Below, piece after piece: positions 6,244-21,711 of a stretch of 64,000 nucleotides of DNA. Source of the stretch: Escherichia phage JP4; the sequence record PQ330092. One strand, given 5' to 3'. The position numbers and the translations under genes were made by a program. The notes under the pieces are model-generated. The model did no database searches. It worked only from the letters and a program-made list of their open reading frames with translations, and had not been told where the DNA came from. The number at the start of each line of letters is the position of its first letter. Position 1 is the first letter of the stretch.

Positions 6244-6906
6244 ATGATGAAATCAAAATTAGGTTTGTTTTATAAAAACTATTTTGTTAAACAACGTAAA
6301 TTTATAAAAAAATATTTCTCTGGTGAGAAGTCTAGTCCTATAATTTTTAAAAGACCAAGTTATAATACTTACTTAGCTGGTGCTAAACAGTCTAAGAAAT
6401 TTATTACTCTTTTAAATAAAAACAAAATTAAAGCTTCTTATGTTGAAACGAGAAGAAACTCATCAATAACTCCTGGTGATTTTATTGAGTACGGATGTTT
6501 CAATATTAAGTATAATGATAATACATACTTTATGGATATTGATTGTAATACATCCAATCTTTTTAACATTGTAGTAAATCCATTAAAACAATATAATGTT
6601 TATGGTGATTCTATTATCAAATTAATCAAAAACAAAGATGGCTTTGATTTTGAAATAAATGTTTTAGATGATAATTTTGACGAAGTACCCGTAAACCCTG
6701 AAATCTGTGATATTTTAAACAGTTTAAAAGGTAGTACCTACAATATATCATCTGATTTAATGTTTCAGTACTCATTAATCCATAAAGATATTGAAAAGTA
6801 TATTGAATGCTCCAGAATTTTGAATTTTCTCTATGATGAATTTAAAAAGAGTTCTAAAATAACCGCATACACTTTGTACAATATTCCTAAAATGGTGAAT
6901 CTTTGA
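6244..6906 (+). CDS. hypothetical protein, Lys-rich N-terminus (220 aa)
   Basis: ORF with AAGGAG RBS; convergent with the minus-strand paralog array. Confidence 0.55.
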   Translation: MMKSKLGLFYKNYFVKQRKFIKKYFSGEKSSPIIFKRPSYNTYLAGAKQSKKFITLLNKNKIKASYVETRRNSSITPGDFIEYGCFNIKYNDNTYFMDIDCNTSNLFNIVVNPLKQYNVYGDSIIKLIKNKDGFDFEINVLDDNFDEVPVNPEICDILNSLKGSTYNISSDLMFQYSLIHKDIEKYIECSRILNFLYDEFKKSSKITAYTLYNIPKMVNL

Positions 6907-7313
6907 CAAATACAGTACTGGCAACTCCACCGTCTGTAATATATTGTCCAGTACTGTAAATTTGTATACCATCGGTTAAGTAAGTTCTGTATAAAGTTGC
7001 TGTAACATATACGTTATTCATATTCATCTCTATTGGTAGTACACATTTGGTATAGGCTGAGACATCTGTTTGTGTACCTATACCTAATTGACCTGCGTTA
7101 TCGCCTGTGTTATAACCAGTTGCGTAAACACCTAATGAAGTTATAATATGATTAGAAAAATATGAATAACCCAAACTCTTGAGATTCTCTACTGTACAAC
7201 GTACCATCTGACATAAGGGCAAAAACTGTCGTATCAGATGAAGCTATTTTTGTAACAGAAGGTTGTATGTTCTTTTTTGATGATGTGATAATTCTTCGAA
7301 AGGGTAGCATTGT
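6887..7313 (-). pseudogene. truncated, frame-broken remnant of RCC1-like paralog
   Basis: MLPFRRI... N-terminal tag at ~7313 in one frame, C-terminal GQLGIG...VFVKDSPF (6887..7222) in another; frames switch near a T5 run; upstream promoter box degenerate. Confidence 0.45.
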
Positions 7314-7346
7314 ATCCTCCAAATGTAAATCGTTATTATATTTAGG

Positions 7347-7375
7347 ACAAAAAAATGCCAGTACAAAATACTGGC
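7347..7375 (-). terminator. intrinsic terminator (GCCAGTA..TACTGGC hairpin + U-run) after 7382..8587
   Basis: 8-bp AGTACT-containing stem followed by T7 on the minus strand. Confidence 0.5.
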
Positions 7376-7381
7376 TTTATT

Positions 7382-19302: not shown

Positions 19303-20412
19303 TTATTTTGGTAAATCAATTTTAGTAAAGACCGCAACATCTTCACTTGCTCCTGGTATGGCGTAATAAGAACCAGTACTATACACATCTCCATTTTTGG
19401 TTAATATCGATGTCAAACCATCACTAAAAAGAACATCCCTAATCTCACTAACTTCAACGGGTAATTGTAAATTGGTAGCACTATATATAGCACCAGTTTG
19501 AGAATTGTTTAATCCCAAACCACGGTTCGCCCCAACACCCTTCTGATATGTACTAGTAATTACCATTTGTGTAGCAGTATTTAAGGCAGGTGAATTCGTC
19601 ATAAACAACGGAGAACTATTAGGCAAAGTACTTACAGGAACTGCACGGAATGTAGTCGTACTTGAACTAAGAAAGTTTGGAGTTTGACCACATACGAAAT
19701 ATGATGTACCATTATAGTAATTTAATGCATTACCACCAATGGCTGCATCGATTACACCAGAACTACGCAATCCCCAAGTGTTAATTTGTGTTTGGTTCCC
19801 CGTACCATGCTGCCCACTACTATTCCATCCAGAACTATATAGCTTATTATCTAATGTAAGATACATACTATCATTCGCATTGGTCATTACTTTACGAACG
19901 TTCGTAGCACATTGAGTTAATGTATAAATTGATGATGAACCAATACCCAAAGAACCACGATATCCATTATCTCCTGCACCATAGAGTACTGAATTAGTGC
20001 TAAGTACAAATATTAAACCATTTGTACATACAATATTAGCAATTTCACTTACTGGTATAGCATTGGTAAACCAATTAGTCCTTTCAACTAATACAGTACT
20101 GTAAGAAGTAGTCGTAGAAGATGAGAACCAGTACGTTTGACCTGATGTCCATATAGTATTATCATTTTTAATAATAACAAGTGTACGATCACCCACGAAA
20201 AAATTAGAAACATCGGCACTTACTAATATCCATGAAGATACCGTGTTGGTATTACCATTTCCAGATTCACCACCTTGATTTCTACCTATGTAATATAAAT
20301 CATGTGAATCAGTCAATAAGAATTGACCTTGTGTAGAAGCACCAACTTTAATTATATTTTTAGGACCAGGTACAATATTTCCGTACTTAACCATTCTTCC
20401 AAAAGGTAACAT
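19303..20412 (-). CDS. RCC1-like repeat protein with MLPFGRMVKYGNIVPGP tag (369 aa)
   Basis: Start at RBS-proximal ATG rather than the long ORF extending through the promoter box. Confidence 0.6.
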   Translation of the reverse strand: MLPFGRMVKYGNIVPGPKNIIKVGASTQGQFLLTDSHDLYYIGRNQGGESGNGNTNTVSSWILVSADVSNFFVGDRTLVIIKNDNTIWTSGQTYWFSSSTTTSYSTVLVERTNWFTNAIPVSEIANIVCTNGLIFVLSTNSVLYGAGDNGYRGSLGIGSSSIYTLTQCATNVRKVMTNANDSMYLTLDNKLYSSGWNSSGQHGTGNQTQINTWGLRSSGVIDAAIGGNALNYYNGTSYFVCGQTPNFLSSSTTTFRAVPVSTLPNSSPLFMTNSPALNTATQMVITSTYQKGVGANRGLGLNNSQTGAIYSATNLQLPVEVSEIRDVLFSDGLTSILTKNGDVYSTGSYYAIPGASEDVAVFTKIDLPK

Positions 20413-20485
20413 AAATCCCTCCTTATTCATTATACTATATTTAATACAAATAAGAAAAGCCAGTATCAAGTACTGGCATATCAAA
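20413..20485 (-). promoter_or_regulatory. terminator hairpin + late promoter-like box + RBS module
   Basis: Hairpin at 20459-20477 plus conserved box. Confidence 0.5.
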
Positions 20486-21634
20486 TCACTGCAAAAATGA
20501 CATATCGACTTCGGTATAATTAAGAACGTTCTGTCCAGCAATACCTCCCATTACTACAATTGAAGCCCCACAATAATATAACTTCGAAGTATCAGTAAGT
20601 ATAAGTGAACCAGATGGGGTGCGTACCAAATTACACGAAGTATTAAACGAAGTATATGAAGGGGTATAAGAGTACTGATTAATATTATTACCAACACCTA
20701 ATTGACCAGACGAGTTGCTTCCAGATGCATAAAGTACTTCATCACCTTTAACTATATGTGACGCCATGTTACCAACACAAGTATATAAACTATAAACTCC
20801 TGAACTCAATAATGTTGGAGTTTTGTATTGTATATCTGTAGATGAAGAAGTACCACCTGTGCCAAATTCGTTCCCGTATTGTGCACCGAACTGTTTACCA
20901 CATGCGTACAAATTATTATCTGATTTAATAAAAAATGTACTCTGATAACTTACATCAAAATCTATAACATCCGAAGCAATCATCGTCACCCCAGTAATAG
21001 AAGTTTGATTACCTGTACCTAACTGATAGTAATAGTTAAAACCACAACCCCATAAAGTATTATCTTCTTTTAGGTATATGTTACCAACTGCCTTTTTAAC
21101 CGAAGTTATAGTATCTACCCTTTTGAATGTGTTAAAAGAATTAATGTTTGTACCATCACCAAATGATGATAGGTTAGAGTTATTGTTAGCTCCACAACAA
21201 TACAATGTACCATCGTTTGTTATCAAATTTACCTTCATATCATTAAAACTACTCATGTATTTTATATCAGAAACATTAATACCACTGGATGTTATCCACG
21301 TAGTACATTCCGTCCACAAAGTTTTTCTATCAGTTACACCAGTGAATGCCTTCGTGTTACCAGTGATAAAAACTTTTCCAGTACCTTTCTCTTCATACAA
21401 TTGACAATCACTACTGTTATTTTCCAATAGAACTCGTTTAACATTCTCCGCACTAAGAATAAATTTACTCGACGCTACACCAGTTCCAGTACCCCAATTC
21501 GTCGCAGAAGATGCATACAACTTATCAGTATAAGTATCATGAAGATACATGGAATCACTGGAATATATTTTAAAACGTCCATCATCACCAGGGGCAATAT
21601 TCCCGTAATTCATCATTCTAACAAAAGGTAACAT
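20486..21634 (-). CDS. RCC1-like repeat protein with MLPFVRMMNYGNIAPG tag (382 aa)
   Basis: First gene of the minus-strand array; start coordinate +/-1 bp uncertain. Confidence 0.6.
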   Translation of the reverse strand: MLPFVRMMNYGNIAPGDDGRFKIYSSDSMYLHDTYTDKLYASSATNWGTGTGVASSKFILSAENVKRVLLENNSSDCQLYEEKGTGKVFITGNTKAFTGVTDRKTLWTECTTWITSSGINVSDIKYMSSFNDMKVNLITNDGTLYCCGANNNSNLSSFGDGTNINSFNTFKRVDTITSVKKAVGNIYLKEDNTLWGCGFNYYYQLGTGNQTSITGVTMIASDVIDFDVSYQSTFFIKSDNNLYACGKQFGAQYGNEFGTGGTSSSTDIQYKTPTLLSSGVYSLYTCVGNMASHIVKGDEVLYASGSNSSGQLGVGNNINQYSYTPSYTSFNTSCNLVRTPSGSLILTDTSKLYYCGASIVVMGGIAGQNVLNYTEVDMSFLQ

Positions 21635-21682
21635 AAATCCCTCCTTATTCATTATATCATATTTACCCCATAAAGAAAACCC

Positions 21683-21711
21683 TTGACATCCTTTCAGTAC
21701 TGGTGTACTAT
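21683..21711 (+). promoter_or_regulatory. promoter TTGACA-N17-TACTAT containing AGTACT, upstream of small-protein array
   Basis: Same architecture as the promoter at 3363; divergent from the minus-strand array. Confidence 0.45.

Follow-up and report, generated by a model that had tools for sequence, protein, structure and literature searches.

Thirteen consecutive genes in a 64,000-nucleotide stretch of DNA from Escherichia phage JP4 (record PQ330092; the whole stretch is here called the window) begin with the same 12-residue N-terminal tag and then diverge into bodies of at least two kinds. On balance we think it probable that this tag is a portable virion-docking peptide, carried by exchangeable, late-expressed adhesin cassettes whose products probably lie on the outside of the particle. 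The array itself, the similarity of its products to RCC1 and their detection in virions by mass spectrometry (MS) are already known, and N-terminal anchors on variable receptor-binding proteins are a familiar principle. What seems to be new is the shared, disordered 12-residue peptide, its use on at least four folds, its statistical link to incorporation into the virion, and a parallel tag of the MLEML type in other phages. No published description of the shared N-terminal peptide was found in the searchable literature.

The tagged genes form an unbroken row on the minus strand between 6887 and 21634 (Table 1). A six-frame scan of the whole window with the motif LPFxR[MIVL]xx[YF][GA]N returned 12 occurrences, every one of them on the minus strand and inside the array (8587 to 21634); inspection of a degenerate further start, MLPFRRIITSS at 7310, completes the row of 13 that had been predicted from the sequence. 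That original prediction had counted 12 intact and two degraded RCC1-like genes. The array is real, and the count has to be amended to ten intact propellers of RCC1 type (369–401 residues), one glycine-rich protein (245 residues), one frameshifted propeller and one deletion remnant; the glycine-rich member does keep the tag on a different body, as had been proposed. The tag reads M-[L/I]-P-F-x-R-[hydrophobic]-x-x-Y-[G/A]-N, for example MLPFGRMVKYGNIAPAP. In an alignment of 21 sequences all 11 invariant columns are either tag residues (M1, P3, F4, R6, Y10 and N12) or one of five glycines, while the bodies of the propeller paralogs in the window are 20–27% identical, which agrees with the earlier description of an almost invariant tag on diverged bodies.

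Megablast searches with the array and a second part of the window matched only ~350-kb jumbo phages of Escherichia and Salmonella, that is Asteriusvirus, which are RaK2-like myophages, with UB, ELP-22, E9.1, phAPEC6 and 121Q as the best matches. The view that the arrangement fits no phage family therefore has to be withdrawn, since it is the known RCC1-like array of these phages, described in the papers on phAPEC6 (eleven RCC1-like genes) and on CBB (121Q_234-248 and several PBECO4 genes). The locus and proteins are the same as in 121Q_234-248, PBECO4, phAPEC6 (gp001-010 and gp549-551) and GAP32 (gp1), with orthologs of up to 99% identity. Both the multiplicity of the genes and the virion MS have been published, and the genes were treated as chromosome-condensation homologs or as tandem duplicates; these accounts mention neither a shared peptide, nor tagged bodies other than RCC1, nor a link between tag and incorporation.

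Matches to the Pfam families taken as the RCC1-like superfamily (RCC1, RCC1_2 and WD40_RLD; PF00415, PF13540 and PF25390) were obtained in nine of nine propeller genes tested. In eight of these PF00415 and/or PF13540 exceeded the gathering cut-off (e.g., 39.7 against 21.7 bits and 43.8 against 22 bits), and in the remaining 389-residue member, whose repeats fell below the cut-off, only WD40_RLD matched (E 1.7e-15). Sequence searches of the PDB with the propellers led to UVR8, HERC1/2, RPGR and RCC1. An AlphaFold2 model of the 380-residue member, built from 21 paralogs and homologs, has about 28 strands, with a mean predicted local distance difference test score (pLDDT) of 91.2 and a predicted template modelling score of 0.88. 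Foldseek placed this model with UVR8 (template modelling (TM) score 0.76, E 2e-21) and with RCC1, HERC2 and RPGR (TM 0.63–0.69), at a probability of 1.0. Pfam, PDB matches, model and structural comparison together bear out the seven-bladed propellers of RCC1 type that had been proposed.

The 245-residue glycine-rich member combines a TNF-like beta-sandwich with a following glycine-rich lattice, and its body matches, among phage structures, tail-fibre, brush and spike proteins only. It had no match in Pfam, and sequence searches of the PDB with this protein and its profile, as well as with two lectin-like proteins of CBB, gave nothing useful. In phage Pam3 a TNF-like plus glycine-rich unit is described as the end of the fibre that recognises the receptor and has been likened to the gp38 adhesin of phage S16. 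Judged by its modelled fold, the glycine-rich member would sit at a fibre tip and bind a host receptor.

The tag appears as a separate element in both AlphaFold models, which show no secondary structure over the first ~20 residues, at a pLDDT of 47–65, and a pLDDT above 90 for the remainder. Residues 1–20 of the 380-residue model have block pLDDT values of 47 and 65, and the first strand begins at residue 22 in the RCC1 member and at residue 20 in the glycine-rich member. According to these models the tag is intrinsically disordered and lies outside the fold. A role as closure strand of the propeller was considered and is rejected on account of this disorder and of the presence of the tag on bodies that are not propellers.

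Phage-type homologs retrieved by their bodies all keep the tag (MIPFARVLKYGN, MIPFVRILNYGN and MLPFVRILEYGN among them), and bacterial RCC1 proteins from the same search are without it. When IMG/VR and a metagenome collection were scanned with a degenerate DNA version of the tag, the matches, short chance open reading frames (ORFs) aside, led to arrays on contigs of ~350–380 kb, among them 121Q, GAP32, CBB and Serratia phage BF. On translated viral and metagenome contigs the tag also heads bodies of 200–306 residues other than RCC1, which Pfam assigns to Kelch propellers (E 1e-32) and to Laminin_G_3 or concanavalin-like lectins (E 2e-12), with others having no Pfam assignment. The metagenomic search suggested with the original prediction has thus found the tag in front of RCC1, Kelch, Laminin_G_3 and glycine-rich bodies as well as others, and RaK2-like phages as a group use it with four or more unrelated folds. 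With a 23-residue tag as query, tblastn returned 60 phage records, every one of 310–386 kb, from phages of Escherichia, Salmonella, Erwinia, Yersinia, Cronobacter, Serratia, Pectobacterium, Klebsiella and, weakly, Xanthomonas; the places found equalled the tag-bearing starts counted at the array loci (15 and 15 in phAPEC6, 11 and 11 in UB). RaK2 and K64-1 were not among the matches of this short-tag search, which is too insensitive to establish absence. Within any one genome the variable positions of the tag are alike, and from genome to genome they change (ARMVK here, VRMFD in the loci labelled L029 and L039, ARISK in L056, RIGV in L013; the forms include MLPFVRMFDYGN, MIPFARISKYGN and ...RIGVYGN), which agrees with gene conversion or with co-evolution with a partner particular to the genome.

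Most genes of the array are bracketed by a repeated junction, as had been noted earlier. The box AAATATAGTATAATGAATAA occurs ten times at up to two mismatches (0.11 expected), each time directly upstream of an array gene, and before each box stands a GCCAGTAC-loop-TACTGGC hairpin followed by a T-run; terminator-like sites in the scan numbered 21 against 6.9 expected. The intergenic blocks matched no known RNA family in Rfam. Within the box the sequence TAAATA lies at −31/−32 from the ATG in ten genes. The same TAAATA is found 30–55 nucleotides (nt) upstream of the phAPEC6 genes for the major head, scaffold, portal-region, baseplate-wedge and giant gp245 proteins, and ATAAATA, resembling the T4 late promoter, was proposed earlier for structural genes of CBB and GAP32. 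Because the box shares this element with head and baseplate genes and resembles T4 late promoters, the array genes are likely to be expressed late, as far as promoter-like sequence can tell. Two pairs (12296/11100 and 9839/8659) are instead coupled by overlap of stop codon and ribosome-binding site, again in line with the earlier description: the first reads TAG-GAGGGAAT-ATG at 12296/12287, with the stop 8 nt before the ATG and overlapping the ribosome-binding site, and the second TAA-GGAGAAAATT-ATG at 9839/9828. The downstream genes of these pairs, at 12287 and 9828, have neither box nor hairpin and start 8–10 nt past the upstream stop, inside the ribosome-binding site.

Concerted evolution of the junction is real, since nucleotide identity between paralogs (0.82 in the 75 nt upstream and 0.885 in the first 36 nt of coding sequence) is far above that of the bodies (0.525). 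It could be argued from these figures (82–89% against 52%), and from the uniformity within a genome of even the variable tag positions, that the N-termini are alike without any protein function, having hitch-hiked on a duplicated and homogenised expression cassette of terminator, late promoter, ribosome-binding site and first codons, which efficient transcription and translation, together with gene conversion, would maintain. We consider this distinctly improbable. The tag persists where the cassette does not: the coupled genes of the window keep it without the promoter box, and each of nine CBB genes (CBB_536, 537 and 548-554) begins with MLPF.....Y[G/A]N, most of them being translationally coupled with unrelated sequence upstream. 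In the metagenome locus L039 the ortholog of the 369-residue gene, with 89% identity in the body, lacks an upstream box; of its 12 tag positions 4 are different, and there it agrees with the consensus of its own genome, MLPFVR[M/L]FDYGN. Across phage genera the conserved residues are written with synonymous codons; among 57 distinct tags Pro3 is CCT in 32 and CCA in 24, Tyr10 is TAC in 33 and TAT in 23, Gly11 is GGG in 25, GGT in 14 and GGA in 14, and Arg6 is AGA or AGG, a count that, coming from selection by a degenerate pattern, shows synonymous variation and not invariance. The spread over four or more unrelated folds and the strong enrichment of tagged proteins in virions, given below, also speak against mere copying. 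The synonymous codons, the CBB operon without boxes and the L039 ortholog without a box show, by sequence comparison, that the amino-acid sequence of the tag is what selection keeps. A by-product of the promoter cassette is rejected on the same persistence, and with it the duplicated 5′ untranslated and coding start that the original prediction had named as the artefact to look for.

The repeated junction may well serve as a substrate for cassette exchange. Compared with UB, 121Q and phAPEC6, the genes of the window are either 82–99.7% identical or absent, with only paralog matches of 27–30%, and the pattern is specific to each gene. According to the paper on fEgEco12, few proteins diverge strongly between two phages of one species, and 'chromosome condensation regulators' make up two of them; a cassette structure would account for near-identical phages differing in exactly the array genes.

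Evidence for a place in the particle comes from published virion MS of the relatives phAPEC6, CBB and GAP32, and not of JP4. In phAPEC6, 62 of 551 gene products were detected, including gp003, 005, 006, 007, 009, 010, 549 and 551, all of which are array members according to the GenBank gene map and a blastp table; six are orthologous to genes of the window, at 70–98.5% identity. In CBB, 55 of 554 ORFs were detected, including CBB_536, 537, 548, 549, 551, 552, 553 and 247, the last of which (L079) bears the tag and sits in the CBB structural region. GAP32 gp1 is likewise a virion protein. Tag-bearing proteins are therefore components of the virion in these relatives, with 8 of 10 detected in CBB (Fisher p 2e-7) and 8 of 15 in phAPEC6 (Fisher p 6e-5). 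Five of the six CBB virion proteins lacking a counterpart in GAP32 are tagged (CBB_247, 536, 537, 551 and 552), and the CBB authors regarded the proteins lacking such a counterpart as candidates for the tail whiskers. The 269-residue product of the frameshifted gene (phAPEC6 gp007, 30 kDa) is also among the phAPEC6 virion proteins, which would be expected if the N-terminus, and not the body, decides incorporation.

Database entries for the array in relatives read 'regulator of chromosome condensation', 'putative DNA condensation protein' or 'hypothetical protein', and following these names and the phAPEC6 paper the products might be DNA-condensation or inner-body proteins. The similarity to RCC1 in sequence and fold, the presence in virions and the inner body seen by cryo-electron microscopy (cryo-EM) would agree with this. 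The name, however, is inherited from a eukaryotic family that needs Ran and nucleosomes for its role at chromatin, and the array proteins have isoelectric points of 5.1–9.2, about as many lysines and arginines as aspartates and glutamates, and 43–48% serine, threonine, glycine, asparagine and tyrosine. Moreover, lectin, Kelch and fibre-adhesin folds occur with this tag and at this place in the locus, and members are gained or lost between near-identical phages. A role in DNA condensation is rejected because of this composition, which speaks against binding to DNA, and because the bodies are of mixed types, and we give it very little credence.

A further indication comes from a different tag. 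Glycine-rich homologs from myophage contigs of ~150 kb and from Salmonella phage PVP-SE1 have MLEML, MLELL or MFEMM at the start in place of MLPF. In the E. coli-associated 150-kb contig WCDA01000009.1 (L023), which is Phapecoctavirus-like, the genes for tagged bodies adjoin the terminase-portal-protease-capsid genes, and the products are a 216-residue Laminin-G-like protein starting MNEMLMLG and a glycine-rich protein starting MLEMLTVG (loci 2459–3109 and 10001–10693). From residue 16 on, the Laminin-G-like protein shares 36% identity with CBB_549 (E 1e-27), and both lectin-like proteins belong to phrog_6011, 'virion structural protein'. Two unrelated body families, each with two lineage-specific short N-termini, are what would be expected of an anchor matched to its particle, and the comparison suggests that another myophage lineage has a tag system in parallel.

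In the docking model that we prefer, the array would be a set of cassettes for accessory virion proteins made late, each consisting of the disordered 12-residue peptide, a short proline-rich linker and an autonomous binding domain, which would be an RCC1 propeller or the TNF-like/glycine-rich fold here and also a Kelch propeller or Laminin_G_3 lectin in sister phages. The tag would fit into a single site conserved on the particle, giving many binding modules per virion, and the folded domains would stay free for ligands, displayed outside on capsid or tail fibres as accessory adhesins. Near-identical terminator-promoter-ribosome-binding-site-tag junctions would provide the homology for cassette gain, loss and exchange between phages. 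The MS of relatives, the unrelated folds and the disorder favour the shared docking or virion-incorporation signal that had been suggested at the outset; beyond these, we infer docking by the tag at such a site, the external location and binding to the host surface. External display is favoured because the glycine-rich body matches fibre, brush and spike proteins, because the other bodies are lectins and propellers, and because virions carry unassigned fibres, seen by cryo-EM of phAPEC6 on the capsid hexamers together with rings on the tail. In its boldest form, which we offer tentatively as possible rather than probable, the 12-residue peptide alone would load any folded protein at a dedicated and conserved receptor of the virion, in lineage-specific pairs (MLPFxRxxxYGN in RaK2-like and M(L/N)EML..G in Phapecoctavirus-like phages), and the particle would 'plug and display' a mixed, rapidly exchangeable set of ten or more adhesins.

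The main rival to docking is internal packaging. The internal proteins IPI–III and Alt of phage T4, whose genes form a plastic cluster, have hypervariable bodies and a short N-terminal tag in common, and in capsid-targeting tags of the T4 type an [L/I]-x-E cleavage site follows. By this analogy the array tag would target the capsid, and the proteins would be packed via the scaffolding core and injected as variable host-directed effectors, such as anti-defence binders. The layout is indeed that of the T4 locus (IPI, IPII, IPIII and Alt with a targeting sequence of ~10 residues), with a short tag, unrelated bodies, a plastic cluster and the virion as destination. RaK2-like phages have a T4-type head module with prohead protease and scaffold, phAPEC6 has an inner body of unknown composition, the proteins are virion-associated, and presence or absence of cassettes would suit anti-defence genes too. 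Against this, [L/I]-x-E occurs within the first 45 residues of only 1 of 12 proteins and its position is not conserved, the bodies are 40-kDa near-neutral propellers and lectins instead of small charged proteins, and the glycine-rich body, a tail-fibre adhesin fold, matches only external phage structures. A cleavable capsid-targeting tag of T4 type is rejected for want of a conserved site, and internal packaging as a whole we regard as unlikely.

Several points also weigh against the docking model itself. The MS data come from relatives and not from this phage, and 12 residues make a very short anchor compared with known N-terminal domains of fibres. MS does not distinguish inside from outside, and the phAPEC6 authors proposed a role in the inner body. 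Gene conversion alone could explain a tag that is uniform within each genome. Among the tagged proteins 7 of 15 in phAPEC6 and 2 of 10 in CBB went undetected by MS. It also should be considered that CBB has tail whiskers and no RCC1 genes, and the propellers are therefore not the whiskers themselves.

Comparison with other anchors points up what is particular to the tag. Separate adhesins at tail-fibre tips, such as gp38 of T2/S16-type phages, Pam3 gp24 and Bxb1 gp33, attach by a folded N-terminal helical bundle, in contrast to a disordered 12-residue peptide common to propellers and lectins. The array shares with modular phage receptor-binding proteins a conserved N-terminus and an exchangeable distal binding domain, whereas their anchors are folded and span tens to more than 100 residues. 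In adenovirus the fibre tail motif FNPVYPY docks into the penton base; this is an analogy only, in that a short aromatic, proline-rich peptide anchors variable receptor-binding proteins, virus and sequence being unrelated. Should the docking model prove true, it would give a function to about 2–3% of the genes of 350-kb phages, now misnamed 'DNA condensation', and would point to proteins that may decorate the unexplained fibres of 'hairy' jumbo phages. The tag could also provide a very small handle for display of foreign proteins on a large virion.

Table 1. Features of the tagged array in the JP4 window, with related genes in other phages (minus strand; MS, detected in phAPEC6 virions)
Feature	Position	Strand	Tag start	Basis	Relatives and remarks
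Tagged RCC1-like propeller gene, 382 residues (MLPFVRMMNYGN)	20486..21634	-	21634	ORF, tag, Pfam RCC1/RCC1_2/WD40_RLD	92.7% identity to phAPEC6 gp549 (MS)
Tagged RCC1-like propeller gene, 369 residues	19303..20412	-	20412	ORF, tag, Pfam	~99% orthologs in UB, 121Q, phAPEC6
Tagged RCC1-like propeller gene, 395 residues	18046..19233	-	19233	ORF, tag, Pfam	UB ortholog 99.7%; none in 121Q/phAPEC6, paralog-level matches 27–29% there
Tagged RCC1-like propeller gene, 396 residues	16802..17992	-	17992	ORF, tag, Pfam	
Tagged RCC1-like propeller gene, 387 residues	15566..16729	-	16729	ORF, tag, Pfam	No ortholog in UB, 121Q; 82% to phAPEC6 gp003 (MS)
Tagged glycine-rich gene, 245 residues; TNF-like beta-sandwich + glycine-rich lattice (PF21722-related), adhesin-type fold	14756..15493	-	15493		
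Tagged RCC1-like propeller gene, 380 residues, AlphaFold2-modelled member	13542..14684	-	14684	Model, Foldseek	85% identity to phAPEC6 gp005 (MS)
Tagged RCC1-like propeller gene, 391 residues	12296..13471	-	13471	ORF, tag, alignment	70% identity to phAPEC6 gp006 (MS)
Tagged RCC1-like propeller gene, 395 residues, translationally coupled, without box or hairpin	11100..12287	-	12287	ORF, tag, Pfam	
Frameshifted RCC1-like gene; tagged 269-residue ORF 10209–11018, remainder in +1 frame to 9839	9839..11018	-	11018		
Tagged RCC1-like propeller gene, 389 residues, coupled to upstream +1-frame ORF end	8659..9828	-	9828	ORF, tag, Pfam	98.5% identity to phAPEC6 gp010 (MS)
Tagged RCC1-like propeller gene, 401 residues (MLPFPRMIKYAN)	7382..8587	-	8587	ORF, tag, Pfam	99% in UB; no ortholog in 121Q or phAPEC6
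Remnant of 13th member: MLPFRRIITSS... start, internal deletion/frameshift, last ~95 propeller codons	6887..7310	-	7310		Degenerate box + hairpin 7357–7375 upstream
Boxes	8599, 11030, 13482, 14695, 15505, 16741, 18004, 19244, 20423, 21645				
Hairpins	8651, 11086, 13535, 14750, 15562, 16794, 18060, 19299, 20477				
Example intergenic block: hairpin 8633–8651 + T-run + box TTAAATATAGTATAATGAATAAAGGAGG, TAAATA at −32 from ATG	8588..8658	-			

In five genes the box contains an ATG in frame with the tag (MNKEGF/MNKGGN...; 13472–13489, 14685–14702, 19234–19251, 20413–20430 and 21635–21652). Because of it, ORF finders and some database entries make these proteins six codons too long, which masks the MLPF N-terminus. 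Shine-Dalgarno spacing and operonic relatives lacking the upstream ATG point to MLPF as the true start, so far as sequence can indicate. P0022, a variant of the glycine-rich protein in the database, begins at the box ATG and is tagless through an in-frame deletion of 11 codons.

In the frameshifted member the shift lies near 10245 on the minus strand (..AAT TCA C GGA CAA.., at the CGG codon, +1), and the ~130 codons downstream run in the +1 frame with no stop before 9839. The identical frameshift is found in the JP4 window, UB, 121Q and phAPEC6. All five downstream differences among these four phages fall at third positions of the +1 frame, and the part downstream of the shift is better conserved than the part upstream. 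Either programmed frameshifting or a recent mutation that the phages share could explain this.

In phAPEC6 (L021, 1–16000) there are unannotated tagged ORFs starting at 2434 (369 residues), 6063 (396 residues) and 7325 (a 244-residue glycine-rich protein), and with 15 tagged starts the published figure of 'eleven RCC1-like proteins' is too low. In CBB the sequence upstream of CBB_554 (L020, CBB 341124–363724) ends like a glycine-rich C-terminus (..AVRIIYGDDRSFPN), and CBB may have an unannotated glycine-rich copy beside its terminal repeat.

A direct tandem repeat with a 20,114-bp period also lies in the window and is perfect, 26,792–43,886 being 100% identical to 46,906–64,000 and the second copy reaching the window end. 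This is probably the ~20-kb direct terminal repeat, present twice in tandem in this record. The array stands just inside the unique right end, as does the equivalent cluster of CBB, which abuts a 22.5-kb terminal repeat. On the plus strand a second paralog array occupies 21737–26528, with about 25 head-to-tail genes of 59–77 residues, most of them starting MN..(K/E)(E/F)Y and ending in a hydrophobic stretch of the ..(V/I)L.LI(F/Y)(R)Y type; this row of small genes is broken by a 229-residue ORF at 23740–24429.

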